A DNA stretch of 55,663 nucleotides from the IMG/VR virus record IMGVR_UViG_3300045988_174416; one strand, 5' to 3'. Source of the stretch: a virus. The notes below the pieces were generated by a model. The model ran no database searches. It saw only the letters and a list, made by a program, of their open reading frames with translations, and was not told the origin of the DNA. A program made the position numbers and the translations under genes. Positions 14,596 through 40,147 of the stretch are shown piece by piece (the first letter of the stretch is position 1; each line of letters starts with the position of its first letter).

Positions 14596-14804
14596 TATTC
14601 TTTTATCTCATAAACGGATTTTATATTTCCGTACCTATCTAATTCTATGTCGTATTTTTCCCTATTTTCAGTTTTCCAAGTTAAATTTGGACAGTTTTTA
14701 TAGCCGCCTTGATACCTTGCCTTATCGCACATTGTCAGGCAATTTGTTATCAAACAGCCGATTTTACTTGGGTATTCAGATTTTTTAAGTTTTATTCTTG
14801 ACAA
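14595..14804 (-). CDS. Small hypothetical protein
   Basis: ORF. Confidence 0.35.
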   Translation of the reverse strand: MSRIKLKKSEYPSKIGCLITNCLTMCDKARYQGGYKNCPNLTWKTENREKYDIELDRYGNIKSVYEIKE

Positions 14805-24497: not shown

Positions 24498-24917
24498 CTA
24501 CATTTCTCTATAAAAATAGTTTGTATTACCTAATTTTTTGTAACCCGATAAAGCCCCTCCGACTTCGTAATCGTTTTCAATTTCGCTTTTGGTATATCCA
24601 CTACCGGACATTGATAAAAGTTCCTTATCGTTTGATATAGCAACCTCTCTTGTAACAACTTCAAGAAAAATATTTTTTTCTTCGTCATTTATTTTTCCTG
24701 CAATAAAAAATTCATCATACTGGTCAGACAAATTCGCCTCGATAGTATGATCTTCAAAATTATCAAATTTTTTAAGTTCAGGAATATCATTTATTAAATC
24801 ATTAAAAGATAATTCTATTGCCTGCATTTTATTCGCAATTTCTGCTAAATCGTTTTTGTTTACCTCCCAAGAGGGTAATTCAATAATAAGTTTTGTCATA
24901 TTGTTAAATCCTTTCAT
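24498..24917 (-). CDS. Hypothetical acidic protein
   Basis: ORF. Confidence 0.4.
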   Translation of the reverse strand: MKGFNNMTKLIIELPSWEVNKNDLAEIANKMQAIELSFNDLINDIPELKKFDNFEDHTIEANLSDQYDEFFIAGKINDEEKNIFLEVVTREVAISNDKELLSMSGSGYTKSEIENDYEVGGALSGYKKLGNTNYFYREM

Positions 24918-25258
24918 TTTTATTTTTTTTACTACATAAATATTTCAGGGTTGTCTTTTTCATTAGAGATAATAATATTTTGCAATTCTAAAAAATCAAG
25001 TAAGCCGATGATTTTTTCTTGTTCTTGCTCTGTCAATTCTCCGTCTGAATAAAAATCAATTCTATATTGCATTTTATCTTACTCCTTTTCAATTTCAAAT
25101 CGTACACTTTCAAGGTCAAAATCCATAAATTCAGGTGCAAGGTTTATTTCTTCAATAAATTTTGGTAAAGAATAAACCGCAATTTTTGTTTGAGATTTTA
25201 CATCGTCCGTTATGTCATAAACGGCAATTTTTATTTTTTCGTAATCCATGACTGCCTC

Positions 25259-25936
25259 CTATTTAATCAACTGATTTATTTTTGTTTTTGCCTCCTCAAG
25301 AGAAGAAACAAAAAAGCGTGTACGCTCTTTTACTATTTGATTTGATAAAATTATTGCCAATTTACCGCCTAATAAAATTTCAACTCCGGCAATATAATCA
25401 TTATTTTTATAAAAATCATATTCAAACCGCCCTTGAGTATTTGTGCCTATATCCTGCATTGTATCAAATTTATTTTTTAATTTTTCTGCCATAAAATCAG
25501 CAACGGATTTTAACAAAAAATATTCTTCTTTTGTTACCTTTTCGGTAGGACATATAAACCCTTTTGGCGGTATTGTAGTTCTATATTCGCTCGATATGAA
25601 AAACTCAATATCATCAATACAGGGTTTAGCATAGATATTATTTTTCTTAAATTTGCCGTCATATACGGTTCTAAATTTAAAAGTTTTTTCTTTTTCGTTA
25701 TCCCATTCATAACAGTATTTTTGAGTAAATAAATCGTATTTGTACGGTTTATCACAAGTCCATAAATCAGGGTGTATCATTACAAGCCCTGCGTTTTTAG
25801 TTTCAATAACAAAATAATTTTCTTTAGTTTCAACTGTTTTTGATGAATAATTATACATTTTGAGAGGGTGTGTAATATAATTTTCCTCTAAAAATTTTTT
25901 TAATCTTTTTACATAATCTTGTAATTTTTTTGACAT
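25259..25936 (-). CDS. Hypothetical protein (225 aa)
   Basis: ORF with RBS AGGAGCG. Confidence 0.45.
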   Translation of the reverse strand: MSKKLQDYVKRLKKFLEENYITHPLKMYNYSSKTVETKENYFVIETKNAGLVMIHPDLWTCDKPYKYDLFTQKYCYEWDNEKEKTFKFRTVYDGKFKKNNIYAKPCIDDIEFFISSEYRTTIPPKGFICPTEKVTKEEYFLLKSVADFMAEKLKNKFDTMQDIGTNTQGRFEYDFYKNNDYIAGVEILLGGKLAIILSNQIVKERTRFFVSSLEEAKTKINQLIK

Positions 25937-25948
25937 TTTAAAACGCTC

Positions 25949-26194
25949 CTATATTTTTGTGCTATTCACTATTTTTTGTATTTGCTCGGTTGTTTCAAGT
26001 AAATTTTCATCTGATGTAATTTCAAGAATTTTTTTACATAGTTTAAAAATAATTTGTTTGAGAGTTGAAAAGGTTTTTTCTCTTTGTTTTTTCTTAACGT
26101 ATTCTTGCATTAAATAAGTACGGTGTTTTTCTGCAAGTTTTTTATATTTTTTTTCTAAAGTTTTTAATTGTTGCTCGGTTGTTTTTTTTATCAT
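25949..26194 (-). CDS. Hypothetical basic helical protein
   Basis: ORF. Confidence 0.35.
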   Translation of the reverse strand: MIKKTTEQQLKTLEKKYKKLAEKHRTYLMQEYVKKKQREKTFSTLKQIIFKLCKKILEITSDENLLETTEQIQKIVNSTKI

Positions 26195-26251
26195 TTTGTC
26201 ATGCTCCTATTAAATTATATCAAAAATATTGATATAAAGCAAGTATTATTT

Positions 26252-26437
26252 TTAATCTGCGTATGGGTATTTTACCCCTTTATGTTTACGATAATTTCTT
26301 TTAAAATTTTTAATTGCGTGTTGTTCGTCTATTGTAGATTTTCCGATAATTCCGCTAAAAGTATTGCCTCTAAAATCTTCACTAACTACGCATAAATTAT
26401 TTATACCGCCTTTATAGTTTTGGTAAGTTATAAGCAT
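26252..26437 (-). CDS. Small hypothetical protein
   Basis: ORF. Confidence 0.3.
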   Translation of the reverse strand: MLITYQNYKGGINNLCVVSEDFRGNTFSGIIGKSTIDEQHAIKNFKRNYRKHKGVKYPYAD

Positions 26438-27432
26438 AATAGAGCCTCCTTATCTTCTAAAATTTTATTTTTTATTTCGCAATATTCGTTTATAACTTCA
26501 TCAATAGATGTAAATTTATTGTAAACGCTCAATTCATCGTTGAGGGCATTTTTTTGGTATTCAATAAATTGTTCATATTTTTTAAGCCTATTAGCGAAAC
26601 AAAAACGGCTTTCAAGTTGTAAAACTGCCTCCGATGTGTCGGCTTGCTCTAATTTTTCAAGATATATTTTTTTTGTATCCATGATAAGTTTTAATAAATG
26701 GTTGTTTCTTTCAGTAAATGTGCCATTTTTAACGGCATTTTTGACATTATTTAATTTATTATTTCTCAAGATACTTTTTAAGCGTTCTCTATACTGATAA
26801 ACCGGATAGCCGGATTTATCCAAAACATCTTTTAAAACATAATATTTTAAGCCGTTTTCAGTATCATATTTATTTATTTTAATTCTGCCATACATAGTAG
26901 TAATATTAAGAGAGTATTTTTTACCGTCCTTAAATACATCAATAGCACTATAATTTAAAGCATATTTTATATATGCCTCACCCTCAACAATAAAGCGGTC
27001 AAGCATATTTTTATTATTATACATTATTTCATGTTCAATATTTATATTTTTTTTATTGATTATTGCCTCCGGTTTTATTTCAATAATCCAGTAAAAAATA
27101 TTTTCATCTTTTCGGCATGCCTCAAAATCTTTTTTTGTGTTGAATTTTCCTAAATAACTAAACCAAAATTTATAAGTGCTTAATAGGTCAATATTTTTTA
27201 AATCAGGGTTAATTTGAACTATTTTTGTTGTATAGTTTTCTTTGTCCCCATAGTAAGGATAAGAAACAAGCAATAAGTTTAAGTTATTTTCGCTTAACTG
27301 ATGTGTTTTTATGAGGTTATCAATAGTAAATTTCCCTTGCCCTGATATTATGTTAATATCTTCGGGTTTATGCCAATTTATACCAAAATTGTCATGTAAA
27401 ATTTTTTTAATTCTGTCATCAAATTTTTTCAT
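26428..27432 (-). CDS. Hypothetical protein adjacent to the MTase; possible PD-(D/E)xK nuclease (speculative)
   Basis: RKDENIFYWIIEIKPE fits D-x9-ExK. This is a weak assignment. Confidence 0.3.
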   Translation of the reverse strand: MKKFDDRIKKILHDNFGINWHKPEDINIISGQGKFTIDNLIKTHQLSENNLNLLLVSYPYYGDKENYTTKIVQINPDLKNIDLLSTYKFWFSYLGKFNTKKDFEACRKDENIFYWIIEIKPEAIINKKNINIEHEIMYNNKNMLDRFIVEGEAYIKYALNYSAIDVFKDGKKYSLNITTMYGRIKINKYDTENGLKYYVLKDVLDKSGYPVYQYRERLKSILRNNKLNNVKNAVKNGTFTERNNHLLKLIMDTKKIYLEKLEQADTSEAVLQLESRFCFANRLKKYEQFIEYQKNALNDELSVYNKFTSIDEVINEYCEIKNKILEDKEALLCL

Positions 27433-27461
27433 TTTTTACCGTCCTTTACTTTTTTATTTTG

Positions 27462-28532
27462 TTACTCTTTTATAAATTTTGTTATACATACATTTATATT
27501 TGTGCCTTTTCCGCTATTTTTAAACGCTCCTGAAAAAGTTTCGCTGCTTACTGCATATTGATTAAATATTTTTTGAAAATCTTTACATGCTTTATTTTCT
27601 GCGGTTTTAATTGTAGGGGTATGAACTGCAACTAATACACCGCCATTTTTTAACATATTAAAAGCGTGTGTTATGTGTTTAGCGTCCATGTTTTTAGAAA
27701 ATGGAGGGTTCATTAAAATTTTATCAAATTGTCTTTTTGCTTGATATTCCATAAAATCAATATTTTTTGTATCATAACCGCTATTTTTTAATATTTCTGC
27801 TAAAATCGGGCTTAATTCAACGCATACAATATTATTTTTATTTAAGCCTTTTATAAGACTTCCCATGCCTGCGGACGGTTCAAGAATAAAGTCATCTTTT
27901 TTTATTTCTGCTAATTCTCTTATTTTTTCGCTCAACTTGTCCGGTGTAGGGTAAAAATCAAATTTTTCTGATAGGGTTACACCTTTTAAATTTTTGCCTA
28001 TTTTTAATATTTGCTCGTTTGTAAAATCCCCCTGATTTTTAAAAGCAGTGCATTTTTTATATTTTGTTCTTATGCAATTAAAACTTTTTAAAAATTCAGT
28101 TATTTTTTTATAAATTTGATTAGATAGCCATTTTTCAGGTAATACAAGCAAATTTTCATGAGTTTCAATAATATCGAAAACATCTGAAACGGTGTAAAAT
28201 AATTTTGTGCCGTCCTCCTCTATGTATTCGGCTAACTCTTTATAAATTTTATATAAAACGCTTTTTAAGTCCGGCAAATTATAAAAATCTTTTGCACAAT
28301 TCAAAAATGTATATACATTTGATTTTTCGCTTATGTCTAATTGCAAGCATAGCATGCATGCCTCTATAAAATCATCAATATATAGATTTTTATTTGCTAT
28401 TTTATTATAAAATTCATAATCAGAAGTGCATACTTCCATAATTGCAAGTGCAACGGCTTTTTTTAATTGTTCCTCCGTTTCAACTACTCCATAAGAATAT
28501 AAACCATAATTTTTTATTTTTTCATTTATCAT
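27462..28532 (-). CDS. N6-adenine DNA methyltransferase (gamma-like order, NPPF) with a roughly 190-aa N-terminal extension of unknown function
   Basis: DFYPTP...ILEPSAGMGSL (motif I) ... ILMNPPFS (motif IV). Confidence 0.7.
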   Translation of the reverse strand: MINEKIKNYGLYSYGVVETEEQLKKAVALAIMEVCTSDYEFYNKIANKNLYIDDFIEACMLCLQLDISEKSNVYTFLNCAKDFYNLPDLKSVLYKIYKELAEYIEEDGTKLFYTVSDVFDIIETHENLLVLPEKWLSNQIYKKITEFLKSFNCIRTKYKKCTAFKNQGDFTNEQILKIGKNLKGVTLSEKFDFYPTPDKLSEKIRELAEIKKDDFILEPSAGMGSLIKGLNKNNIVCVELSPILAEILKNSGYDTKNIDFMEYQAKRQFDKILMNPPFSKNMDAKHITHAFNMLKNGGVLVAVHTPTIKTAENKACKDFQKIFNQYAVSSETFSGAFKNSGKGTNINVCITKFIKE

Positions 28533-28559
28533 TTTTTTAACGCTCCTATTTTATTATTT

Positions 28560-28799
28560 TTAACCAATTTGCATGCTATATGATAAACAATACATCATAA
28601 TCATGCCTTTTTTGTTCCTGCTCAAATATACATTTTGAGCGGTTTTTTCTGATATTACATTATCTTTTTGTAAACTATCAACAAACATATTGAACTCTGT
28701 TTTTAATTTTATTTTATCGTCTTTGTAAAGTTCTTTGAGGTTGTAACCGTCCATATTAAAACCTTGTTTAATTGTTAATAAATCGTTTTTTACTGTCAT
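28560..28799 (-). CDS. Small hypothetical protein
   Basis: ORF. Confidence 0.3.
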   Translation of the reverse strand: MTVKNDLLTIKQGFNMDGYNLKELYKDDKIKLKTEFNMFVDSLQKDNVISEKTAQNVYLSRNKKGMIMMYCLSYSMQIG

Positions 28800-28801
28800 G
28801 A

Positions 28802-29386
28802 TTATGCCTCCTCAATTTTGCCTTGTTCATTAAAATAATATTCATTTGCAATTAAAGTTTCTTTTACTTGTTCATCACTTCGCAAAAAATCATAATCATT
28901 TGACAAATTATTATATAATTCTCCGCAAGCCTCCAGCCGGATTTTTTCAATATAATTTTTTATTGTGTCAATATGTTTTTCAATTCTTTTAAAATCTTTT
29001 TGAAAATAAGTAATAATGTCAAAATTTACTGTATTTTCATGCGTGTAAAAATTTGCAAGATGATTTTCTTTTAATTCAATTTCACAATAATTTTTTATAA
29101 TATTTATTAGCCATGTTTTATGTTTTATTTCTAAATTTTCAAGCAATAAATTTAATTCAAATTCAGAGCAAACAAAACATGCTCCGCTGCCTTGACAGCA
29201 TGATAAATCATAATAAACAGTAGGATTTAAAAAGCCTTTATCGGCTAAATTTTGCATGTGCGTGTCGTTATTTTCGTAAATGTTCACATCTTCAACATTA
29301 ATATCTCGGTAATTGTTTAAAATTGTTTCTTGTAATTCTTTTGAACATTCTTTAAACTGTCTTAAAATAATTGTTTTTGTTTTCAT
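28802..29386 (-). CDS. Hypothetical protein
   Basis: ORF with RBS AGGAGCG. Confidence 0.4.
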   Translation of the reverse strand: MKTKTIILRQFKECSKELQETILNNYRDINVEDVNIYENNDTHMQNLADKGFLNPTVYYDLSCCQGSGACFVCSEFELNLLLENLEIKHKTWLINIIKNYCEIELKENHLANFYTHENTVNFDIITYFQKDFKRIEKHIDTIKNYIEKIRLEACGELYNNLSNDYDFLRSDEQVKETLIANEYYFNEQGKIEEA

Positions 29387-29413
29387 CTTGTTACGCTCCT
29401 ATATTTTTATTTT

Positions 29414-29614
29414 TTAAACTGTTTTTGTGATAATTTCCCGAACTATTAAGCCCTTGTTTTTAATTGCCATATTTTTTATATAGTCGGCTTTTTGTTCTTT
29501 GTTTAATGGTTTTATTTTGCCTTTTCTTATGTATCGGGCTATGTTTTCCGGTTTTTGCGTGCCTGTCATAAAATAAAATTTTTCATCATCAATAGAAAAT
29601 AAAGTTAATATCAT
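29414..29614 (-). CDS. Small hypothetical protein
   Basis: ORF. Confidence 0.3.
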   Translation of the reverse strand: MILTLFSIDDEKFYFMTGTQKPENIARYIRKGKIKPLNKEQKADYIKNMAIKNKGLIVREIITKTV

Positions 29615-29623
29615 GTTAGCCTC

Positions 29624-30541
29624 CTATTTAAAAATTTTTCTATCTTTAACATTTGGGTTACAAAAATGAACTTGTTTATTTTTATAAAAAGCCCCTGTTA
29701 ATTCCCCATTGCTCATTAAAGCAAATTCTTTTATATTGCCTCTTATGTCGTCATATTCTTTTTTGCTCATGTGTTGTACCATGTCAAAATCCCCGATAAT
29801 TTCATGATAAAAATTATTACAAGATAATTTTTTACCGATTTTTAAATGTCTTTGTTTTAAATATTGTTTTAATTCGCTCATAGTTTTAAAGCATGACTGC
29901 GTGCTATAAAAACATGGGCTTGCTTTGTCCCAATTTTTAACCATGTATTTATAATCAGAATTAAAAATTCTTGAAACGACAAGAGCAATATATTTTCTAT
30001 CAAGTACAAGTTTAAATTTGTTTACTTTTACTTTTATATACATGCCTCCGTTCCCTCTTGCTCCGGTGTGTCCCCATGTCCATATTGTCTTAAAAGCAGT
30101 GCCGATATATTTTATATTTTTAATGTCTAAATCATGCCATGCTCCGCCTGATGTGCTGAAACAATCAATATCTATATAATGACTGCTTGCATGTTCGCAC
30201 CATGTCCAGCCTGTATCGTTATAACTGCATTTTTCAATGTGTGCATTTTGGTAAAATATTTTATTATTATTGCTCCATACTTCTAAAACGTCTGCCGGAT
30301 TAGGTTTTTTAGTACTTTGGGTTCTTGCATTAAATCTATTTTGAATATCAATATACATTTGAACATCTGAAACGGTTAGCCCATGTTCATTTATAAAGGA
30401 ATAGTTATTTTTAATAATCTCAATAATAATATCTTTATCAAATTTATTAAAAATATCTTTATCAAGTTGCCATGCTCTTACATATAGTTCATGGTCATTT
30501 AAAAATTGCTCTACATTAAAATTTTGTGTTATATTTTGCAT
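29624..30541 (-). CDS. Hypothetical protein (start at MQNITQ)
   Basis: AGGAGCG lies 7 nt upstream of the ATG at 30541. Confidence 0.45.
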   Translation of the reverse strand: MQNITQNFNVEQFLNDHELYVRAWQLDKDIFNKFDKDIIIEIIKNNYSFINEHGLTVSDVQMYIDIQNRFNARTQSTKKPNPADVLEVWSNNNKIFYQNAHIEKCSYNDTGWTWCEHASSHYIDIDCFSTSGGAWHDLDIKNIKYIGTAFKTIWTWGHTGARGNGGMYIKVKVNKFKLVLDRKYIALVVSRIFNSDYKYMVKNWDKASPCFYSTQSCFKTMSELKQYLKQRHLKIGKKLSCNNFYHEIIGDFDMVQHMSKKEYDDIRGNIKEFALMSNGELTGAFYKNKQVHFCNPNVKDRKIFK

Positions 30542-30560
30542 TTTGTACGCTCCTTTGCTT

Positions 30561-30788
30561 TTATTCAATATCTAAATTAAAAAGTCTTTTAAATTCGTTC
30601 ATTAGTTCCATGCTTGATGTGTTTATATTGTCCTCTTTTGGTAGTGCCTGCAATTTGTTTATCTCTATTATGTCCATGTCCTCAACTGCTAAAATAAAAT
30701 TAAAAGTTCTATACATCAAATTTGAAAAAGTTTTAAAATCCTGCTCGGACATATTTTGAACTTTGTTTTTAAATTTGTTTAGTGTCAT
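30561..30788 (-). CDS. Hypothetical protein, first gene of the minus-strand block
   Basis: RBS AAAGGACGG. Confidence 0.4.
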   Translation of the reverse strand: MTLNKFKNKVQNMSEQDFKTFSNLMYRTFNFILAVEDMDIIEINKLQALPKEDNINTSSMELMNEFKRLFNLDIE

Positions 30789-30825
30789 GGTTTACCGTCC
30801 TTTATTTATTCACTTTGTACGCTCT

Positions 30826-30847
30826 TTTTATATCAAATAAATTGATA
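30826..30847 (-). promoter_or_regulatory. Divergent fifth copy of the early promoter/operator (leftward early promoter)
   Basis: Minus strand reads TATCAATTTATTTGATATAAAA. The dyad TATCA-N7-TGATA and the extended -10 (TGaTATAAA) are conserved. Confidence 0.5.
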
Positions 30848-30939
30848 TATCTATTATCATTATAAACTAATAAAAACAAATTTCAACCCTTAAATGTTAT
30901 TTTTATTATATAACATTTACAAAACTTTACATTAAATTA

Positions 30940-30972
30940 AAAGCCCTTAATATATAAGGGTTTTGGGCTTGT
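30940..30972. terminator. Hairpin aagccCTTAatataTAAGGGttttgggctt with A/T tracts on both sides (bidirectional terminator-like)
   Basis: Read from the sequence. Confidence 0.35.
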
Positions 30973-31039
30973 ATAATTTTGCTTAAAATTATTAAATTTT
31001 GTAAAAATCATATATTTGTATGAGTTTTTTATATTTCCG

Positions 31040-31180
31040 GCTCTTTGTTGCCTTGTTTCTCTTTTCCTTGTCTTTCCTTACTTTCCTGCTTTGTTTTGTT
31101 CTTTTGCCTTGTCTTTATTGCCTTAATGCCTTGTTAATATGTCTTAAATGCTTATGCCTGTTGATTTTGATAGACTTTTT
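31040..31180. repeat. Polypyrimidine tract with about 6 copies of (T)GCCTTGT / TCCTTG iteron-like repeats
   Basis: ttgccttgtttc...tccttgtcttt...ttgccttgtcttt...ttgccttaatgccttgttaat. The top strand is almost purine-free. Confidence 0.5.
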
Positions 31181-31388
31181 GGGGATTTTATAGGCTTAAA
31201 AGCCTTATGTAGTAATACTTTGAGGGACTTTTGGGACTTTTTAAGGTATAAAAAATATATTTCTCTCTCTCTTAATAATAATAATAATAAAAATTACTCG
31301 GTATTATATAAAAGTATCAAAAAGGTTAAAAGTAAGACTATAAAGGCATTTAAGGGGCTAAAGTCAGGGCAAAAAGGCTTAAAAATCA

Positions 31389-31490
31389 ATAGCCGTAAGG
31401 CTTTCAGGCATACAGGAATAAAAGCAACGGCAAGCCGGACGGCTCAAGAGGGGCAATAAATCAGGGCAAGGGGGCAAAAATCAACCGCAT
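31389..31490. repeat. Imperfect direct repeat unit A (paired with 31650-31735)
   Basis: Shared blocks agccgtaaggc, aataaaagcaa, ccggacgg, caagaggg(g)caa and cagggc. Confidence 0.5.
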
Positions 31491-31649
31491 AAAATCCGGT
31501 TATGGTTTACCCTGCTTAAAAATTAAATTTCAGGCGGTTAGCAAGCCATTTAAGAGGGGTTAAAAGTTCAGATATATAAACATAAGCAAGCAAGCAAAAC
31601 AAAGCCTTGTTACATAATATTTATTATCAGTATGTATCGAAACGATACA

Positions 31650-31735
31650 ACCAATAAAAGCAAGTAACCGGACGGACAAAAGCCCAAGAGGGCAAAAGCA
31701 GCAGGGCTGGAAAGCCTTGAGCCGTAAGGCATAGA
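31650..31735. repeat. Imperfect direct repeat unit B, followed by C9 and C5 tracts (31736-31751)
   Basis: Same blocks as unit A, with agccgtaaggc relocated to the 3' side. Preceded by the perfect hairpin tgtatcg-aaa-cgataca (31633-31649). Confidence 0.5.
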
Positions 31736-31966
31736 CCCCCCCCCTACCCCCTGAAAATCTGCAAAATCAAGCCTCAAACCCCCGATAGTACCCCCAGAAA
31801 AATTTTTCAAATTTCAAATATTTTAAGCCTGTCTATCGCCTCTCACTTCATTGTACCTCACATCGTACTCACTATATAAAATAACTGACATCACATTTCA
31901 AACTTAAATTTTTAACGATTTGCACCAAATAATTGTTGCACTTTTTCAATTTGCACATTATTTTTG

Positions 31967-32026
31967 TGGTATAATAATTGCATAAAATTGTCAAAACTTG
32001 ACAAAAAATTGTTCATCACTTAAAAT
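31967..32026 (+). promoter_or_regulatory. Late-operon promoter region: upstream extended -10 (TGgTATAAT, 31967-31975), then TTGACA (31998-32003)-17 bp-TAAAAT (32021-32026), with an overlapping inverted repeat TTGTCAA-aac-TTGACAA (31988-32004)
   Basis: Read from the sequence. RBS AAGGAG at 32035-32040 and ATG at 32047. Three TTGCAC hexamers lie upstream (31919, 31936, 31951). Confidence 0.5.
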
Positions 32027-32046
32027 TGATAAAAAAGGAGCAAAAA

Positions 32047-33273
32047 ATGAAAGAGAAAAAGGAAAGAAAAATTACTTATAATAAAGTAATGACTTTGCGG
32101 GATTATGCAAACCTTGCTTATTTCTTGGAAACAGGGGAATATGAGCGTGATTTTACTGGCTGCGACCCTAAAGCCTTACTGGAAGAAAAGAAGTACAGTA
32201 TGAGGCTAACAAAAGAGGATAAAAAATTGGTTGATAAATTCTTTGACCGATTTAAACTTGGCGTGTCTGCCGATACTATTTTTGCAAGCATACCAAAGGA
32301 AAAGAAAATTCAGCAGCCTGTTATTATTCAACAGGTGGTAGGTCAGCCAGCCGCACAAACATTACAACCTCCGACTGCTGCAAATGGCGACCCTTACAAC
32401 TCAAAGCCGCCTGTCCTTGATAACGAGGAAACAAAATCAACAAAAGTATATCCTGTTTATACTAATGACGAGCGTTGGGAACTGGCAGAGCAGTTGGAGC
32501 GTGAGGCAGTGGATAAATATAGCGAGCCTTTTGACGAGAATGTTGATAGGACGGATTTTTACTTCGTTAAAGACTGTAATAAGCCTGTAAATGATTTAAC
32601 TAATTTTGAGCCGATGTTGGCTCTTAAAATGATATTTGACGGAAAAGTTGACCCAAGCGAGGTGGCAGAGGTGGCAGGGGCAAAAGGCTCTTGGATTTTC
32701 TCTACACCTTGTACTGAAATGAACGGAATACACCCTGAATTTAAAAAGCGTTATAGTCAACTTACGCCTGCGATGTTGGAAATGCAGCAACTCGGTATTC
32801 AGTATCGCATGATTATGAGCGAGGACGAGCCTGCCGACCCTGAAAAGAAATTTGTTGATTATGCTTTGAGGCTTGGACGAGAACTGGACGAGGTTAAGGC
32901 TAAAGAGATTAAGGATTTGCAAAATTCCTTTATTGATAAAATAGATACGGTTAAAGGCGATACTATTTATCTTGTGTCTGATGACCCTGATGTTGAAACT
33001 CCTGACGAGATAAACTTTACCTACGATAATGCTGACGACCTTAAAAATGACCTTATGATATTGGCTCGCAAATATAAATTTGACTTTGACCAGCCTATTG
33101 ATGTATTCGGCAAAAAGACAAGTTATAGAAAAATTGTCAAAGAATATGAAAAACAATATCCGCATGGCATTAAAGGACTATACTTTAAGACGGCTAAAGA
33201 GGAGTTTTTGGCTGGCAAATTGTTATTAGGTGGGTTTATGGGAGTAGATTTTCAATGGCGAATAGAAAAATAA
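32047..33273 (+). CDS. Hypothetical protein, first gene of the late operon (ATG at 32047; the ORF-track TTG at 32026 is unlikely)
   Basis: AAGGAG lies 6 nt upstream of ATG 32047. Confidence 0.5.
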   Translation: MKEKKERKITYNKVMTLRDYANLAYFLETGEYERDFTGCDPKALLEEKKYSMRLTKEDKKLVDKFFDRFKLGVSADTIFASIPKEKKIQQPVIIQQVVGQPAAQTLQPPTAANGDPYNSKPPVLDNEETKSTKVYPVYTNDERWELAEQLEREAVDKYSEPFDENVDRTDFYFVKDCNKPVNDLTNFEPMLALKMIFDGKVDPSEVAEVAGAKGSWIFSTPCTEMNGIHPEFKKRYSQLTPAMLEMQQLGIQYRMIMSEDEPADPEKKFVDYALRLGRELDEVKAKEIKDLQNSFIDKIDTVKGDTIYLVSDDPDVETPDEINFTYDNADDLKNDLMILARKYKFDFDQPIDVFGKKTSYRKIVKEYEKQYPHGIKGLYFKTAKEEFLAGKLLLGGFMGVDFQWRIEK

Positions 33274-33965
33274 AAATAGCCAATGCAGGCGATTTACAAG
33301 CAAATATAGATTTGTTACGATGTAATAACATTATTAAGAATGGCGGCGTATGGGAACTGATAGGGCATAAAGAGGTGGAACTTAATTCGCACCTCTTTAA
33401 TACCCTCTGCTTTTTAGGAAAATTAAAATTGACTTCGCATTGTCAGGGCAGTAAATTTTATGAGTATAAATTGCAGGCATGCTCGTTTGATAAGGACGAG
33501 AAATATTATAAACAGTTGGCTCGCTTTACTTATAATCGCAAATTTTGGGCTTTGTATGATGTTAAAAGAATATTTGCAAAACTTGGATATGAGGTGTGGG
33601 CTGAATATTACGACAGGATTTTTCCGGCAGCAGAGTGTTCAATGCATGTAAAATGTCTTATATTCCAAAAAGACCGCTTTAGGCTGATTTTACCTTATTT
33701 TTCAAATATTGCAAATTTGCTTACTAAAAATTCTATATATAAACAAATTGTCAGAATAATAAGTGAGTTATATTTATTCGGTAGTAAAAATCCAAAATAC
33801 CCTTATGAAGTATCTTTAGTTTGCGACCCTGATACGCCTCAAATGCCGCCGCAGGCTATATTACCAGTGTTGCAAAGAAAGTGGAACTACCAATTTAAGC
33901 AAATTTCTGATACAGTATTAGTGTGGGCGAACTATGAGGAGGGGCAATATGACGCTATCAGATGA
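33255..33965 (+). CDS. Hypothetical protein
   Basis: ORF with start overlap. Confidence 0.45.
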   Translation: MANRKIKIANAGDLQANIDLLRCNNIIKNGGVWELIGHKEVELNSHLFNTLCFLGKLKLTSHCQGSKFYEYKLQACSFDKDEKYYKQLARFTYNRKFWALYDVKRIFAKLGYEVWAEYYDRIFPAAECSMHVKCLIFQKDRFRLILPYFSNIANLLTKNSIYKQIVRIISELYLFGSKNPKYPYEVSLVCDPDTPQMPPQAILPVLQRKWNYQFKQISDTVLVWANYEEGQYDAIR

Positions 33966-34308
33966 AGAATGGCAAGAGAAAGCGGAGCAAGGCTTAAAGG
34001 AACTTATCGAGGGGGCTACTGTTACAAAGGAGCAAATAGATAAAGACGGCTGCGTACATACTCTTGAGGCAAAATTACCTCCAAATATTGACGCTATAAA
34101 ATTTACTCTTAAAAACCGCTCAAAAGGCAAATGGGCTGACAAGACGGAAACAACGATTACACAGGTCAATGTCAACCTCAATGCCTCTTATAATGAGGTT
34201 AAAGAACTCATGGCAAGAGAAAAACAACGCCTTATTGAAGAACAAAAAGAGGGTGTTATTGATGTTGACTATATTGAGGTAGAAAATGCCGAGAACTCCG
34301 ATAAATAA
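33949..34308 (+). CDS. Small terminase subunit candidate
   Basis: GAGGAGG followed by ATG at 33949. 120 aa, acidic. Immediately upstream of, and overlapping, the TerL start. Confidence 0.35.
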   Translation: MTLSDEEWQEKAEQGLKELIEGATVTKEQIDKDGCVHTLEAKLPPNIDAIKFTLKNRSKGKWADKTETTITQVNVNLNASYNEVKELMAREKQRLIEEQKEGVIDVDYIEVENAENSDK

Positions 34309-36178
34309 TACTGAATACAATAATTATATCAAGTTTATGTTGTTCCTCAATAGCAATAGGGGCTATTGTTCGGCTATTGACCCTGAATATTTTGATTTTG
34401 TTAGTTCTATAAAAGTCTTTCCTGAAAATCTTGCAAGGACTGTTTTATTGGGTACGCCTATATTTAAGCAGCGTGGCATTTATATTTTGCACCGTCAAGG
34501 CAAGGATAGCAAAGTAAAAGGTGGGGAATTTTGGCTTACTCATAACGGAATGGATATTGTACGCAACGAGCCGAGAGAGCATTTTCCGGCATTTTTACAA
34601 GAGCCAATAACTACGCCTGTTCAAGAGGGGGAACAACCGACCGCTTTAGATATTGTTCGTCAAGCAAAAATTGAGTATGACCGCAAGCGAAAAGAGGAGC
34701 AAGAAAAACGCTGGACAAAAGAGGAGGTTGTTCATCTGCTTACAAATGAGGCACACATGGTTGGTCGTATGCTGGGGACAGGTTATGACTTGTTAGAGCC
34801 TATTCATAGCGAATGGATTAAAACATGGGTATTAAACCCTCAAGGATTTCGTGTTACCGTCCACCAAGCACACAGGGATAGTTTTAAATCAACTTGTTTA
34901 AGGCTCTGCATAGCCATTCTGCTTATATTAAATCCTCTTTTAACCATAATTTTATTGCGTAAATCAGAGGACGCAGTAAAAGAACTTGTAAATGGTGTCA
35001 GTAAAATTCTTGATACGCCTTTGTTTCAGACATTTATTAACATTTTACACCCTGATATTGTTAAAAAAGGTGGCTTTAAAAAGACTACTGATACTGCATT
35101 AAGCATTGATACTAACTTAAATACAAGTCTTTCAGGGGAATTTCAATTAAGAGGCTTGGGGCTTGGCTCGCCATTAACAGGTAAGCACGCTGCCCTGATT
35201 ATAACGGACGATATTGTTACTACTGACGATAGAGAGAGTGAGGCTGAAAGACGCAGCACTATTGCAAAGTATCAGGAATTGATGAACATATTATCAAATA
35301 ATAAAGGTTTTTCAGATACTCGCATACTTAACATCGGTACGCCTTGGCATGAGGAGGACGCTTTTGCTCTTATGGAGCGAGGCTTAAAAGAGAAATCCGA
35401 CAGACAAAAAGAACTTGAAGAAATAGACTTAAGAAATTTGTCGCCAAAAGAAGTTAAAGCGATTAAAAGAGAAATCCGACAATTAAACATGTTGCGTGGT
35501 TTGTTTGTATATAATTGCTACCAAACAGGCTTGATGACTAAAGAGGATATTGAGTGGAAAAAGCGTGTATTGAATGATGACGCATTATTCCAAGCAAACT
35601 ATATGCTATCCCTTGTTTCTGACGCTGAAAAACCATTTCCTAAAATTAAGAATGTCGGCAACTATTCAAAAACCTTTTATCAGAACGCTTGGGAGGTTTT
35701 TGCAGCCATTGACGCCGCATATTCAGGCGATGACCGTACTGCCGTTGGTATAGGGGCTTGTAATTGGGAAACAAATGAGGTCATTGTATATGGTCGCATG
35801 TATAAAACGGCTTTGGATAAAAATTATATGGAAGTTGCAGAAGTTTTGTTTGAGTGCGGCGTTTCAAAAATATTTATGGAAACTAATACTGATAAGGGGC
35901 TTATGGGCGATAAGTTTAGAGAATTAGGCTTTGTGGTTGATAGTTACCATGAAAGTATGAATAAGCATACAAAAATTGTCAGCACTATTCGTCCTTATTG
36001 GCGTGAGGAGGGGCAAGAACTGCTGCCAGCAGTACAGTTTGTTGAAGAAACTGACGAAGAATACTTAAAAGAAGTTTGGGGCTATAAAAAAGGCGTAAAA
36101 CACGATGACGCTCCTGATAATTTGGCATGTTTGTTATTAAAAGGTAAATTTGGCTCTTTAGCCGTTAGAGTTAGTTAG
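34286..36178 (+). CDS. Terminase large subunit (with an approximately 130-aa N-terminal extension)
   Basis: ATPase-like LIITDDIV. Nuclease motifs AAIDAAYSGDDRTAVG and a C-terminal HDDAPD. Confidence 0.7.
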   Translation: MPRTPINNTEYNNYIKFMLFLNSNRGYCSAIDPEYFDFVSSIKVFPENLARTVLLGTPIFKQRGIYILHRQGKDSKVKGGEFWLTHNGMDIVRNEPREHFPAFLQEPITTPVQEGEQPTALDIVRQAKIEYDRKRKEEQEKRWTKEEVVHLLTNEAHMVGRMLGTGYDLLEPIHSEWIKTWVLNPQGFRVTVHQAHRDSFKSTCLRLCIAILLILNPLLTIILLRKSEDAVKELVNGVSKILDTPLFQTFINILHPDIVKKGGFKKTTDTALSIDTNLNTSLSGEFQLRGLGLGSPLTGKHAALIITDDIVTTDDRESEAERRSTIAKYQELMNILSNNKGFSDTRILNIGTPWHEEDAFALMERGLKEKSDRQKELEEIDLRNLSPKEVKAIKREIRQLNMLRGLFVYNCYQTGLMTKEDIEWKKRVLNDDALFQANYMLSLVSDAEKPFPKIKNVGNYSKTFYQNAWEVFAAIDAAYSGDDRTAVGIGACNWETNEVIVYGRMYKTALDKNYMEVAEVLFECGVSKIFMETNTDKGLMGDKFRELGFVVDSYHESMNKHTKIVSTIRPYWREEGQELLPAVQFVEETDEEYLKEVWGYKKGVKHDDAPDNLACLLLKGKFGSLAVRVS

Positions 36179-36783: not shown

Positions 36784-38130
36784 ATGTCCTTAACCGATAA
36801 AATAATGAGCCGCATGGGCTACATTAAAAAAATAAAAGAAGATGACGGCTTTTGTGAGGGAGGCGATGTCCTTATTCAAGACGGCAAGGTTGTTGGAACT
36901 CCGTATCACGATTTTTCAACAAATATGCGTAAACCTGTATTACAACCGTCTGAATGGGACGCTGCATACAGGCAGATTTCTTGCGTAGGCACAAGTGTTG
37001 ACCTCATTGCTAACAATATTCAAATGATAGAGCCTGTTTTTTGGGATAAAACCAAAAATCAAGTGGCAGAACGCACAAACGACACACGCTTAAAAGAATT
37101 AAATCAACTGTTTAAAAATCCGTCTGCTGGAGTAAATCGTAAAAAATTTCTTGAAAAATCCTCAAAAGACTATATTTTGCATGGCATTGTGTATTACGCC
37201 TTTATTTTTAAGGGGACAAAGCCTGTTTCTATTAAAATTTTGGACGCAGAGTTAGTATCTGCAACCGCAGATGTCGCAAATAATCGCATTGGCTCTTATT
37301 TGGTCAATAATTCAGGTTCTTTTGACGGAAATTATATTTTTAATGGAACTTATTATCAAAAAGAAGATGATAGAAATTATATTTTAGCACCTTATTGGAA
37401 CGCTGACCCTCAATGCTCATATTTGCCAGCGTCTATTTTACTTGGCACAGGCATTGAAACGCTTATGTATTGGTTTGGGTGTTATCATAATAAAAGTTTA
37501 TTGCAAAATGGGGCAAGACCCTCACTTATATTCCTGATTAAATCTTTATTAAATCCAAAACATAGGGAACAATTAAGGCAAGAAATAAGGGTTAAACACG
37601 CTGGGGCTGGAAATGCCGGAAGTGCCATAATTATTGACGGTTCTGCCGAAAAAGATGTAAAGCAATTCTCACAAAATAATAAAGATATGGAATTTTCGGA
37701 AGTGTTAAAAGCCGCAGAGGACGCAATATATCGCAGACTTGGTGTAAATTGGGTTTTGGGTAAAACTGTTCAAAGTAAAGACTATGAAAAAGGCATGCTC
37801 ATGTTGTTTGATATGACTATTTGCCCTTTGTTTCAAGGTATTTTTAACCATTTATTTGATGTTTACAAATATAAAAATGTCGGGTTTGATGACCTTGAGG
37901 TGTTTTATCTTGAGCAGAATATCCCTGCATTGCGACCAAGATTTTTGTCCATGATGAAAGATTTGCCTACTTTGGGTATATTTACAGTAAAAGAACGCAG
38001 GGGAATGTATAATTACGCTCCTCTTGGCGATTATAGGGACGATGAATTAACCGTTCAAAGTGTTAAAGTTACTCAAAGCGGCATGAATGGCAACAATACA
38101 ACGGAATTTACAAGCGAAAATAACGAATAA
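36784..38130 (+). CDS. Portal protein
   Basis: 448 aa. Sits between terminase and prohead protease. RBS aaggggga. Confidence 0.55.
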   Translation: MSLTDKIMSRMGYIKKIKEDDGFCEGGDVLIQDGKVVGTPYHDFSTNMRKPVLQPSEWDAAYRQISCVGTSVDLIANNIQMIEPVFWDKTKNQVAERTNDTRLKELNQLFKNPSAGVNRKKFLEKSSKDYILHGIVYYAFIFKGTKPVSIKILDAELVSATADVANNRIGSYLVNNSGSFDGNYIFNGTYYQKEDDRNYILAPYWNADPQCSYLPASILLGTGIETLMYWFGCYHNKSLLQNGARPSLIFLIKSLLNPKHREQLRQEIRVKHAGAGNAGSAIIIDGSAEKDVKQFSQNNKDMEFSEVLKAAEDAIYRRLGVNWVLGKTVQSKDYEKGMLMLFDMTICPLFQGIFNHLFDVYKYKNVGFDDLEVFYLEQNIPALRPRFLSMMKDLPTLGIFTVKERRGMYNYAPLGDYRDDELTVQSVKVTQSGMNGNNTTEFTSENNE

Positions 38131-38192
38131 AAATACAAATTGTTGCAAAAAAAATAATAATCGTATATTATTAAATCAAAGAGGGAAAATTG

Positions 38193-38813
38193 ATGACAGG
38201 AAAGATAGACGGAAAACGCATTTTTCTAAAACTGCAAAAGGTCAATGAAAACGAGGTTAAACTTGAATTTGACTTTGAGCGTGATGAGGAAAAATATACA
38301 TACATTATGGCTATTGCAAGCACTCCTGACAAAAACTCTGCTGGGTTTATTGTGGAAAATAAAGCGTTGCTGGACGCTTGGGCTGCAAACAAAGCCGCAG
38401 GCAAAAATGTTGCCGTTTATGAAAAACATGGCTTACCCGTTGGTAAGGTTGTTTCTTGTGAGGAAATTAGCGAGAAAGTATTAGTTGTTTTGGAAATACC
38501 AAAATCAGGCAACGAAAGACTACTTGCTGTTTATGAACAAGGTATTTATGTTGGGCTTTCAATAGGCGGCTGGTCGCTTGACGGCGAGTGGATTGATGAT
38601 GTATTTCATGTAACAGAATTTGATTGGTACGAAGTATCTTTAACTGATATTCCAGCCAATGAAAATGCAACTCTTTTGGAGTTCGCAAATACAAAAAAAC
38701 CTCAAGCACAGGGGGATAAGACGGAGGAAACAGTTATCAAAACTGAAATTTCTAACGCAGATGTGCATACGGCATTAGAAAATGTTATTAAAGCAATAAA
38801 GGGGGAACAGTAA
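38193..38813 (+). CDS. HK97-family prohead protease
   Basis: VGLSIGGW...EVSLTDIPANENA resembles the S78 signature (evSlv..PA). Lies between portal and capsid. Confidence 0.55.
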   Translation: MTGKIDGKRIFLKLQKVNENEVKLEFDFERDEEKYTYIMAIASTPDKNSAGFIVENKALLDAWAANKAAGKNVAVYEKHGLPVGKVVSCEEISEKVLVVLEIPKSGNERLLAVYEQGIYVGLSIGGWSLDGEWIDDVFHVTEFDWYEVSLTDIPANENATLLEFANTKKPQAQGDKTEETVIKTEISNADVHTALENVIKAIKGEQ

Positions 38814-40147
38814 TGAGAAAACATGCTGACAAATTTAAAGTACAATTAGAGGGAACACCGTCTAATCAACCTCCTGTAAAATCGGAGGAAATCAAGTTAG
38901 AAGATATGCAGAAAAGTCTTGTTTCTGCCGTTGAAACTAAACTTGAGGCAAAAGGTGTTGAAATCAAGGACGGTTTAAAAACTGAACTTGAAGAAACAAT
39001 TTCACAGTCTATTGACAAAGTTAAGCAAGAATTAGTTGAATTGCAAAACGCTAATAATGCTAAAACTAAAGTTGATGACGCTACTGAAATTGAAAAAGTG
39101 CAATTACAACGCTTAAATTCTTGTATTAGGGACGGTGCTGAAAAAGTTACCTTACAGCAATACAGAGATTATCTTGTTGAATTGAACAAACAAGTAAGGG
39201 ACGCTATCAACGGAAAAGAAATCAAACTTGACGCTACTATCGCTGGCTTTGCTGGTTTTGATGATAGCAGAGGCGGTGCTTTGATTATACCGGAAGTTGA
39301 CCCTAATATCAGAGAGGACTTTATTGAATATGACGAGGGCTTATTCAATGCTGTCAACTTTGAGCCTGCTATGAGCAGAACTAAAAAAGTTATCGTTGAC
39401 ACAGTTGAGCCGGACGAAAATGTTGCCGCAGTTAAGGAAACACTAGAAAGAATTGGCTACTCTATTGATGACGGTTGCTTTGTTTCTGCAAATTTGAACT
39501 TAAAAGATTATGACGCTCCGGCAAGAATTACCTATGATGAAATCGAAGATACTGCTTTCAGAATTGAAAATTATGTCAATGGCAAACTTGTTAGAGGTTG
39601 TCGTAGAGGCGTAGCAAAAGACCTTTGGGTTGGAAACTCTGCTGAAAAAATCAAAGGTATTATCAATTATGAAAGAGGTAATACTTATGGTAAGGTTGGC
39701 GAAGTTCATGTTGCTACAAGCGGAACTGTAACAATGACCGATATTATGAATTTGTGTATTTCAAATAGATGTAAAGGTGTATTGTTTATTGACAGAACAA
39801 CTTGGGCGAATGTTATCACTGAACAAGACGACAATCATCGCTATAAATTTGAACTTGGCTTTGTTCAAAAAGGGTTAGGTACACAACCTTTCCACGTTGA
39901 CGCAGTTGTACCGTTGTTAAATGTTCCTGTAATTTTTGATGACGGCTTTACACTTCCGGCAGCAGTTGCAGCGAATGTAAAAGCAGCAATTTTGCCTCCG
40001 TCTGCGGTGGCTGGTTATAAACGCCCTGTTGGTCGTTTTATGATACATGACCACTTAAAGAACAGAGATATGTTGCTTACTGAAAGATATGACGCAGTTT
40101 TGACACAGTTCAAATATGTTAAACTCTTAATCGGTACTGCTGCATAA
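38813..40147 (+). CDS. Major capsid protein (HK97 fold) with an N-terminal coiled-coil scaffold/delta domain
   Basis: TAATG coupling to the protease. About 110-aa helical N-terminus followed by a beta-rich body. Confidence 0.6.
   Translation: MRKHADKFKVQLEGTPSNQPPVKSEEIKLEDMQKSLVSAVETKLEAKGVEIKDGLKTELEETISQSIDKVKQELVELQNANNAKTKVDDATEIEKVQLQRLNSCIRDGAEKVTLQQYRDYLVELNKQVRDAINGKEIKLDATIAGFAGFDDSRGGALIIPEVDPNIREDFIEYDEGLFNAVNFEPAMSRTKKVIVDTVEPDENVAAVKETLERIGYSIDDGCFVSANLNLKDYDAPARITYDEIEDTAFRIENYVNGKLVRGCRRGVAKDLWVGNSAEKIKGIINYERGNTYGKVGEVHVATSGTVTMTDIMNLCISNRCKGVLFIDRTTWANVITEQDDNHRYKFELGFVQKGLGTQPFHVDAVVPLLNVPVIFDDGFTLPAAVAANVKAAILPPSAVAGYKRPVGRFMIHDHLKNRDMLLTERYDAVLTQFKYVKLLIGTAA

Follow-up and report, generated by a model that had tools for sequence, protein, structure and literature searches.

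We analysed a gene-free gap in the genome of a tailed phage and, within it, a short conserved block that resembles dif, the chromosomal site of the host's XerC/XerD recombinases. The genome is IMG/VR virus record IMGVR_UViG_3300045988_174416, and we call the whole stretch of 55,663 nt the window. (Coordinates refer to the window unless another contig is named.) The window is a complete circular assembly of about 55.6 kb, with ends that overlap exactly by 55 nt. It encodes a tailed phage of the HK97 type, with the small terminase subunit TerS at 33934-34308 and the large subunit TerL at 34286-36178, followed by the portal, the protease, and the major capsid protein (36784-40147). The gap is at 30789-32046 (1,258 bp). 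To its left, leftward genes extend from about 6 kb to 30788, where the gene for a 75-aa protein starts; among their products are a helicase, a primase, and several DNA methyltransferases. To its right, rightward genes run from 32047 onward, beginning with the ATG of a gene for a 408-aa protein. The genes neighboring the gap are the 75-aa open reading frame (ORF), a gene for a DUF4121 protein, and the gene for the 408-aa protein, which has no assigned function. Contigs that encode an identical 75-aa early protein come from human-gut metagenomes. The sigma-70-like promoters and strong AAAGGAG ribosome-binding sites suggest a host of the Firmicutes type; the bins of metagenome-assembled genomes (MAGs) that contain our genome matches conflict (Ruminococcus, Bacteroidales, and Elusimicrobia).

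Just three ORFs lie inside the gap, at 31020-31193, 31148-31459 (plus strand), and 31610-31810 (minus strand). A first-pass annotation of this DNA had described the gap as noncoding and rich in repeats, and had dismissed the latter two ORFs as noise. The relatives of the phage bear this out: they have 1-nt indels and changes in the length of a C tract inside both of these frames, so we rejected a coding interpretation. Nearly all of the features listed in that annotation proved to be there, at the given coordinates or close by, and we saw no credible ORF. The region is noncoding, repeat-rich, and functionally constrained.

As relatives, we took the contigs that encode homologs of the 408-aa protein (26 homologs, with identity down to 43%) and contigs that were recovered by a DNA pattern. 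(Where a single contig must be named, we use labels such as L001.) Every relative has a gene-free gap, of 1.15-1.6 kb, with the same layout. This holds for at least eight sublineages of the window's own lineage (lineage A), in which the gap is 1.15-1.4 kb and lies between divergent operons, and also for a second, otherwise unrelated phage lineage (lineage B).

We then compared the segments of the gap. Its DNA aligns at 70-76% identity even where the neighboring protein is only 45% identical. Between the window and its most distant relatives in lineage A, identity is 31-52% in a pyrimidine-rich tract, 69-75% in an array of iterons, 54-82% in an A+T-rich tract, 38-64% in a purine-rich spacer, 93-98% in a block at 31607-31649, 73-76% in the right core (31650-31815), 28-64% in the promoter region, and 52-60% in the DNA of the 408-aa gene. 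Across all relatives, identity is 91-98% for the block; for the right core, it is 73-81% in relatives whose 408-aa gene is 52-60% identical at the DNA level. Thus, the constraint is concentrated in a module of about 210 bp, and above all in one 42-bp block (31607-31648). This block is present in a single copy in the window.

Lineage B (L022, L024, L026, and L028) was recovered by pattern search. Its design is the same, with divergent operons, a 1.6-kb gap, an iteron-like array, an A+T-rich tract, and runs of G/C, and its block lies about 600 nt upstream of the packaging operon. The 42-bp block, at 95-98% identity, is the only DNA that can be aligned between the window and lineage B. TerS, TerL, and the first late protein of lineage B are unrelated to those of the window. 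(For TerS, there is no BLASTP alignment; for TerL, it is phrog_38 against phrog_2.) Across the 8-15 kb of lineage B sequence that we compared, only one protein is in common with the window, a MazZ-like nucleotide pyrophosphatase. In both lineages, the block is 400-640 nt upstream of the first rightward (packaging/structural) gene and 1.3-2.3 kb from the start of terS. Because the block is nearly identical in phages that are otherwise unrelated, its partner should not be specific to the phage, and is most simply a host protein.

The block contains a match to a dif-type core site for XerC and XerD, on the minus strand at 31607-31634. Sites of this type have an 11-6-11 layout (PMC5357621). In the window, the XerC arm would be CATACTGATAA (31634-31624), the central region TAAATA (31623-31618), and the XerD arm TTATGTAACAA (31617-31607); the arms, of 11 bp each, are partly dyad-symmetric (inner ATAA / TTAT) about the central 6 bp. 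For comparison, the dif site of E. coli is GGTGCGCATAA-TGTATA-TTATGTTAAAT and that of B. subtilis is ACTTCCTAGAA-TATATA-TTATGTAAACT (PMC3025954). Several predicted dif sites from Firmicutes (PMC3025954 supplement) match the window's site at 20-21 of 28 positions. The core GATAATAAATATTATGTAA is the same as the dif of Desulfotomaculum acetoxidans at 18 of 19 positions. The site also shares an identical run of 16 nt, and the central TAAATA, with the dif of Oceanobacillus iheyensis, and the octamer ACTGATAA of its XerC arm is found in the Exiguobacterium dif. A dif-motif has been defined by at least 15 identical bp and a noncoding location (PMC7062461); by that definition, given the 16-bp run in common with Oceanobacillus and its noncoding location, the window's site would count as such a motif.

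We also scored the site with a weight matrix built from 25 dif sites, whose positions 7-25 (19 nt) we treated as the core. The core of the window's site scores 23.9 bits, as compared to 18.1-27.3 bits for real dif sites. None of 6 million null positions scored that high, and the second-best core in the window scored 13.8 bits. With the full 28-nt matrix, the site scores 11.7 bits, which is the best in the genome. Among 17 copies of the site, the outer-arm positions are the only ones that vary, and neither the inner arms nor the central region shows any change. In some relatives, the outer arms are a better fit, and the full-matrix scores are 16.1 and 18.1.

The XerC arm abuts a 15-bp palindrome, GTATCG-AAA-CGATAC (GTATCGAAACGATAC, 31634-31648, z -4.3), which occurs once in the window. 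None of its paired positions varies among 14 sequences of lineage A, and lineage B has exactly this palindrome. The first-pass annotation had flagged this hairpin (as TGTATCG-AAA-CGATACA, 31633-31649), and it is indeed invariant across all relatives, but the dif-type core that it abuts, which is the element of the region that is most conserved and tells us most, had been missed. This palindrome is possibly the site of an accessory factor.

Next to the XerC arm is also a conserved block of about 170 bp (31649-31815). Here, the invariant alignment columns form a cluster of motifs (31731-31808) on the XerC side. The sequence TACCCCCWGAAAA occurs twice, 44 nt apart (31745-31757 and 31789-31801); a run of nine C lies at 31736-31744 and runs of five C at 31747-31751, 31779-31783, and 31791-31795 (the C9 and the first C5 had been noticed before); and a perfect palindrome, GAAAAATTTTTC, is at 31797-31808. 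Lineage B has TACCCCC and GTACCCC, 46 nt apart, and then AAAATTTTCA, which mirrors the window's pair of TACCCCCWGAAAA and its GAAAAATTTTTC. The cluster is a candidate for binding accessory or regulatory proteins. The GTATCGAAACGATAC palindrome, the TACCCCCWGAAAA pair, and GAAAAATTTTTC could equally be regulatory sites of the late operon.

Where else does the dif-like motif occur? A blastn search of GenBank phages with a 56-nt block found gut microviruses from the feces of rodents, moose, and marmots. (With the whole gap as the query, blastn against INPHARED found nothing.) A closely similar motif is present in six of the eight microviruses that we inspected, in the short noncoding gap after the Rep gene; an example is ATACTCATAATATATATTATGTAAAAAGG, as compared to ATACTGATAATAAATATTATGTAACAAGG in the window. 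In gokushoviruses, noncoding dif-motifs have been shown experimentally to support reversible integration that depends on XerC and XerD, and this capacity arose in several lineages of microviruses (PMC7062461). Similarly, microvirus proviruses in Bacteroidetes are located at dif-like sites (PMC3091885), and for inoviruses and phages of the double-jelly-roll type, it is documented that unrelated groups of phages share lysogeny elements of this kind (PMC12715192). In some microviruses, too, a hairpin directly precedes the XerC arm of the dif-like motif (CATGTCGG/CCCGACATG in mar38, L046 ~384-400, and CTCG-TAG-CGAG in Alces MP11, L045 ~389-400). These hairpins parallel the window's palindrome, but they may simply be terminators of the Rep gene. 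We also noticed very similar dif-like cores in unannotated DNA of plasmids. One is from the Prescottella equi plasmid pWY (CTTACCGATAA-TAAATA-TTATGTCATCC, L031 1495-1525). The other is from E. coli IncF plasmids (CATACTGATAA-TAAACA-TTATATAATTT, L030 1499-1527), and its XerC arm is identical to the window's.

Overall, we favor the view that the gap acts in cis, as a DNA control region centered on a recombination site for the host's Xer proteins, and is neither an RNA gene nor coding; we would put the probability of this at roughly 0.5. That the 42-bp block is a functional Xer site, as its sequence suggests, seems to us about an even bet. The control region would hold the divergent early and late promoters, an origin-like module (31161-31330), and the constrained module of about 210 bp (31605-31815). 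The host's tyrosine recombinases XerC and XerD would bind the two arms, and strands would be exchanged with a partner site across the 6-bp TAAATA. If the partner is the dif of the host chromosome, then the outcome would be reversible integration without an integrase, as for Xer-exploiting (IMEX) elements and gokushoviruses. If the partner is a second copy of the phage site, in a dimer or a terminal redundancy, then the outcome would be multimer resolution or cyclization, as for cer/psi or the loxP site of phage P1. The invariant palindrome and the conserved 170 bp or so on the XerC side would be sites for accessory proteins that control the reaction.

Different observations favor each of these outcomes. 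First, integration at dif is favored by the parallel to the microviruses and by the lack of an integrase: we found no member of an integrase or recombinase family among about 47 ORFs that were scanned against PHROGs and/or Pfam, although very divergent recombinases may escape such a scan. Second, multimer resolution is favored by the 170 bp or so of invariant motifs beside the core, as in cer/psi, and by the nearby origin-like module. Third, cyclization in the manner of P1 loxP would explain why the site is 1.3-2.3 kb from terS in both lineages; this is pure inference.

The attP sites of IMEX phages (gokushovirus EC6098 and other Microviridae, the Vibrio inoviruses CTX/VGJ/TLC, and double-jelly-roll phages of the dif type) are like the window's site in several ways. 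They have the same 28-bp motif with an 11-6-11 layout, in a single copy, in noncoding DNA of a phage genome that replicates as a circle and in which no integrase was found. The motif is horizontally shared among unrelated groups of phages, and the window's sequence is close to the motifs of gut microviruses. In contrast, the window's carrier is an HK97-type tailed phage of 55.6 kb, and no integrated copy or attL/attR junction was found for it; integration is a prediction from sequence. Also, the window's site has further invariant DNA around it, namely about 170 bp of motifs and an abutting palindrome.

A dif-like core directly beside a conserved block (about 170 bp of candidate accessory sequence here, about 180 bp of accessory sequence there) is also the arrangement of cer (from ColE1) and psi (from pSC101), whose accessory sequence is on the XerC side. 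Both are in a noncoding region of a circular replicon, near an origin-like module, as in the window. However, their accessory proteins PepA and ArgR/ArcA are enterobacterial, and no related binding motifs are recognizable in the window. The central region is 6 bp in the window, as in dif and psi, but 8 bp in cer. The loxP site of P1, which cyclizes terminally redundant DNA after injection and resolves dimers of the plasmid prophage, is likewise a site for site-specific recombination that a tailed phage has close to its packaging genes, but P1 encodes its own recombinase (Cre), while the window's phage would borrow the host's. Unlike the chromosomal dif sites of Firmicutes, the window's site has deviating outer arms, and it is on a phage instead of at the chromosome terminus.

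A broader scenario, which is possible but which we hold only tentatively, is that two unrelated lineages of tailed double-stranded DNA phages from the gut and rumen, in which we found no integrase, acquired a microvirus-type site that mimics dif, together with the palindrome and about 170 bp of accessory DNA, and use the host's XerC/XerD for a passive and reversible lysogeny at dif, for dimer resolution as an episome, and/or for cyclization. So far, this use of Xer is known from small non-tailed phages and from plasmids, but not from tailed phages, and our literature searches found no report of a tailed-phage IMEX. If the scenario is true, then this would be the first Xer-exploiting (IMEX-type) tailed phage, the reach of IMEX would widen from small single-stranded DNA phages and double-jelly-roll phages to Caudoviricetes, and phages with single-stranded and with double-stranded DNA would hijack one host machine, either convergently or by horizontal sharing. 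How the many abundant gut phages that have no integrase can persist in their hosts for years is a standing puzzle. If a tailed phage of 55 kb had a host-Xer site, then this would give it a simple route to persistence, by passive integration at dif or as a stable episome, and prophage finders that rely on integrases would not flag such a phage. The site would also be a handle for host prediction, as the host's dif should match it.

There are several caveats to the Xer interpretation. First, the full-matrix score of 11.7 bits is below those of all of the training dif sites (the leave-one-out minimum is 14.8), and about 0.15 chance matches per genome are expected at this score. The case is carried by the 19-nt core and by the fact that this coincides with the conserved block. 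At its outer end, the XerD arm has the three bases CAA, versus a Firmicutes consensus of ACT. Second, the central region is compared here with the dif sites of other bacteria, and a match to that of the host is a prediction. Third, no integrated copy or phage-host junction turned up. About 40 contigs carry the region, and all of those that we inspected are free or circular. In one scan each of genome and metagenome collections, the block was flanked on either side by further phage DNA in all of the contigs that we examined, and the matches from genomes are phage-sized contigs in MAG bins. We also looked for integrated copies by way of the gene neighborhoods of the 75-aa protein and of P0014, and all copies were in the phage configuration. 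Fourth, partition genes and a repressor were not recognized, so a temperate or episomal lifestyle would be a conjecture. Fifth, the adjacent palindrome and the C-run motifs are conserved equally well, which the Xer model does not specifically predict, and there is modest covariation in a few stems of 2-4 bp. Finally, we noticed the likeness to dif after several other ideas about motifs in the block, all by eye.

Those ideas were an IHF site, a CodY box, a promoter for a sporulation sigma factor or a phage RNA polymerase, a hairpin promoter of the N4 type, a nick site for rolling-circle replication, and a DnaA box; for each, the fit was poor or the required protein was absent. We also rejected an attP core that is identical to a host gene, as a 38-nt pattern matched only phage-sized contigs. 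Nor could we extend the motif to other large phages in IMG/VR: the sole additional large contig that matched (L051) has the match inside an ORF of a very A+T-rich genome, which we attribute to chance.

We then considered other explanations for the block, beginning with an origin of replication. Between the pyrimidine-rich tract and the purine-rich spacer is a module (31161-31330) with two parts. The first part is an array of six RAYTTTK iterons (31161-31243), with cores at 31164, 31174, 31185, 31217, 31227, and 31236; the two triplets flank a palindrome, AGGCTTAAAAGCCT (31192-31205), and the spacing within each triplet is 9-11 bp. Exact GACTTTT occurs three times in 69 nt, versus 17 times in 111 kb (both strands). 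The array is 69-90% conserved and has lineage-specific variants (for example, three to five copies of GTTACTTT in L018), and lineage B has an analogous array of four GTTTAW. A perfect repeat, GGGACTTTT twice at 31224-31241, corresponds to a sequence that was reported at 31223-31241. The second part is an A+T-rich tract of 87 bp (31244-31330, 83% A+T), with (TC)5 at 31263-31272 and (TAA)6 at 31274-31291. (The latter is the microsatellite that the first-pass annotation called as (AAT)5; we find (TAA)n at 31273-31294.) The position of the microsatellite is kept throughout lineage A. In the most distant sublineage (L015 and L018), (TAA)6 is replaced by (TAG)6; the unit changed in concert, with no change in position or copy number. 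Read on the plus strand, either unit has an A-R-U triplet, and on the minus strand, either has Leu/Tyr codons.

At least three direct repeats at helical spacing beside an A+T-rich element is the layout of an iteron origin. The array is a candidate for the initiator-binding part, and the A+T-rich tract for the unwinding element; together, they are possibly an origin, and a reasonable candidate for one. The closest analog is found in the Lactococcus phages of the c2 type (Ceduovirus). Their early and late blocks diverge from a noncoding region that contains the origin, and replication is primed by a noncoding transcript that starts at the first early promoter (PMC7150918). On this precedent, the gap might be only an origin, with the block as a site for an initiator or a host replication factor and its likeness to dif incidental. 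We consider this unlikely. Besides the conserved iterons and the A+T-rich tract, the cumulative GC skew has its minimum at 31-32 kb, as expected for an origin, but the switch in skew coincides with the switch in gene orientation and hence is not independent evidence. A promoter-like sequence on the minus strand (31312-31284) and a terminator-like hairpin (30960-30944) could bracket a noncoding transcript of about 330 nt. However, the candidate -10 is inside (TAA)n and is lost where this is (TAG)n, and the hairpin is not conserved, so the window has no conserved promoter for a transcript like the PE1-T of c2. Nor is there any sequence similarity to c2, which lacks a dif-like element; the part of the window that can be compared to it is the module of iterons and A+T-rich DNA.

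An origin was also proposed in the first-pass annotation, and it is still plausible, but not on the grounds given there. The GCCTTGT repeats that were proposed as iterons are dispensable, and the P-loop helicase-type initiator that was thought to be adjacent is not there; the RAYTTTK array and the A+T-rich tract are what now speak for an origin. None of the eight ORFs nearest the gap has a Walker A motif (the closest is in a 443-aa ORF at 22347-23678), and the helicase (12958-14595) and primase (7958-9025) are 16-23 kb away. A formal scan of 30789-32046, allowing up to one mismatch, found no DnaA boxes. Also, the iterons are 69-75% identical in distant relatives, versus 93-98% for the dif-like block, and an origin leaves unexplained why only the block is shared with lineage B. 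An origin module may coexist with a Xer site, so the two compete only over the meaning of the block.

Alternatively, the gap could be a regulatory region for the late genes. The block, the TACCCCCWGAAAA pair, and GAAAAATTTTTC would then be sites for transcription factors of the host or the phage, or an unusual promoter or antitermination signal for the packaging operon. This seems rather improbable to us, although in both lineages the rightward operon's first gene does begin 400-640 nt downstream of the block, and palindromes and paired motifs at a fixed distance of 44-46 nt in both lineages are typical of operators. Tandem late promoters with an inverted-repeat operator had been predicted at the right end of the gap, and we found all of these parts. 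Rightward promoter 1 has an extended -10, TGGTATAAT (31966-31975), whose TG-N-TATAAT is kept in all sublineages of lineage A. Rightward promoter 2 is TTGACA-17-TAAAAT (31998-32026, within an element at 31989-32026; 11 of 12 consensus matches), which is present in relatives of the window, L007, and L015 types but is missing in the L003 type. An operator-like inverted repeat, TTGTCAA-AAC-TTGACAA (31989-32005, z -5.3), contains the -35 of promoter 2. Downstream, the Shine-Dalgarno sequence AAAGGAG and the ATG (32047) of the 408-aa gene are at 32033-32049, and the homologs start at the same position. The block itself, however, does not fit any promoter consensus on either strand, and it is present in a single copy, unlike phage-specific promoters. 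Also, regulation does not account for the 11-6-11 architecture of dif or the match to the dif-like motif of microviruses. For the motifs downstream of the block, a regulatory role could still hold.

Could the gap instead encode structured RNA? The candidate region is 31330-31815 on the plus strand, which is rich in purines and has several GNRA-capped hairpins. It includes the purine-rich spacer (31331-31606, 64% purine, plus strand; 38-64% identity in distant relatives) and a pair of direct repeats. Copy 1 of the repeat (31417-31467, about 51 nt) and copy 2 (31653-31707, plus strand, AATAAAAGCAA..CCGGACGG..GCCCAAGAGGGCAA..CAGGGC) give a gapped local alignment with a score of 31, versus 16.4 +/- 2.6 for shuffled sequences (0 of 500 reach 31). 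These repeats had been described as 60-90 bp long (31389-31490 and 31650-31735); they are real, but the similarity covers about 51 nt and has gaps. The region also has two small GNRA-capped palindromes, CAGGGCT-GGAA-AGCCTTG and GCC-GTAA-GGC (31702-31731, plus strand; -15.7 kcal/mol, z -3.1). The first of these is nearly invariant, while the second is swapped for other sequences in L007 and L010.

That this region encodes one or more structured RNAs is, in our judgment, very unlikely. The fold of the single sequence has a z of -3.4 on the plus strand, but the minus strand folds about equally well (z -2.8). Several small hairpins have GTAA, GGAA, or GAAA loops, and some variants with U-G wobbles fit only the plus strand (for example, GCTC-AAGA-GGGC in L023), yet the hairpins shift register between sublineages instead of covarying. 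Double changes are found in 13 cells, versus 4.1 +/- 1.5 in shuffles, but the covarying pairs are in stems of 2-4 bp that were chosen by the same algorithm. Consensus folds of 13-14 diverged copies (RNAalifold) showed no conserved structure. For 31330-31609, with 13 sequences, the consensus energy is -0.07 kcal/mol. For the right core, it is -15.2 kcal/mol on the plus strand, with a covariation term of -0.86, and -26.6 kcal/mol on the minus strand; the covariation terms are all under 1 kcal/mol. A scan of 30000-33000 against Rfam, with E values up to 10, gave no credible match (the best had E = 0.82 and 19 bits, where the gathering score is 41). A tRNA or tmRNA is likewise absent. Furthermore, the strongest conservation is of invariant primary sequence, and the region is not bracketed by a conserved promoter or terminator. 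Although the GNRA hairpins and the z scores of the folds had suggested a large structured RNA, and the first-pass annotation had raised structured RNAs for the repeat pair, we dropped this idea after the consensus folds and the counts of pairs. A long noncoding region that looks structured, with many hairpins, can be a control region at the DNA level, which is a practical caution for genome scans: a hairpin-rich noncoding stretch need not be an RNA gene.

Last, a packaging signal (pac or cos, with repeats bound by the terminase, upstream of the terminase genes) was also proposed before and would suit a gap that has terS (33934-34308) 1.9 kb downstream of it (the distance to the putative terS is 1.3 kb in lineage B), that has C-rich tracts and repeats such as are common around cos sites, and in which several long contigs of relatives end, but it is highly improbable given that the block is common to lineages with unrelated TerS and TerL and that the contig ends scatter (at ~30837, 31075, 31377, and 31539 in window coordinates). 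Nor is a fixed physical end visible in the assemblies: L007 and L008 are contigs of the same length that are circular permutations, and the window closes on itself with its 55-nt overlap.

The left half of the gap holds the early promoter and several less conserved features. A leftward promoter of the sigma-70 type, TTGAAA-16-TATAAT (30886-30859, minus strand; 11 of 12 consensus matches), is 70 nt upstream of the 75-aa gene. What had been taken for a diverged copy of the early promoter (30806-30828) is instead a minus-strand, degenerate copy of the segment with the next gene's leader and ribosome-binding site; it belongs to repeat family D10, and its identity to 30534-30556 is 83%. The hairpin that was reported at 30940-30972 is present at 30940-30964, with a 10-bp stem (-11 kcal/mol, z only -1.4) and a terminator-like match on the minus strand, but it is specific to the window; the relatives have other sequence there. 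The pyrimidine tract reported at 31040-31180 is also real (75% pyrimidine). Its GCCTTGT-type repeats (31040-31160, plus strand) have a 40-nt period in 2.2 copies, evolve quickly, and are partly dispensable: 48 nt of them are deleted in L001, and they are replaced in more distant sublineages, which does not fit the proposed role as iterons.

This half of the gap evolves through indels, and assemblies tend to break in it. For example, L001 has a 15-nt insertion besides its 48-nt deletion, 38 nt are duplicated in L020, and the microsatellite has changed its unit. Five long contigs of relatives (18-53 kb; L002, L003, L008, L020, and, from lineage B, L028) stop within the gap's left half, with no two stopping at the same place. 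These stops, at ~30837-31540, are probably assembly breaks in a variable, indel-rich region and not physical genome ends. In L001, which is 98% identical to the window, 1.65 kb of unrelated sequence (L001 3440-5090) replaces 24629-31149, or 6.5 kb of early genes and the left part of the gap. The boundary of homology is at about 31150, just left of the iterons.

We also noted some features of the neighboring 408-aa protein (32047-33273, plus strand) and of the rest of the genome. The 408-aa protein has no match in PHROG, Pfam, or PDB. Its AlphaFold model is too poor to classify (mean pLDDT of 44), but the N-terminal 80 residues or so have a repeated strand-helix pattern and might be a small DNA-binding domain. 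A reverse transcriptase of the type found in diversity-generating retroelements (987-2204, plus strand; phrog_1423, E = 6.7e-98) is located just downstream of the sequence for a tail protein's C-terminal end (156-557, plus strand), so the phage probably has a diversity-generating retroelement that is aimed at its own tail fiber. The MazZ-like protein of the window (9804-10289, minus strand) has the N-terminal domain of a dATP/dGTP diphosphohydrolase (PF18909, E = 5e-25), and its counterpart in lineage B is at L026 8858-9148. Together with three ORFs from DNA methyltransferase families (27462-28532, 19399-20034, and 14792-15550), it hints at modified DNA. In some relatives, TerL is 988-989 aa instead of 630 aa (L007 5206-8175, L008 2911-5880, and L019 from 5243 onward). 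The long forms match Hom_end_hint and LAGLIDADG, which indicates an intein in the large terminase. An ORF with a GIY-YIG domain (9454-9819, minus strand) and an HNH endonuclease ORF (5086-5451, plus strand) may be homing endonucleases.

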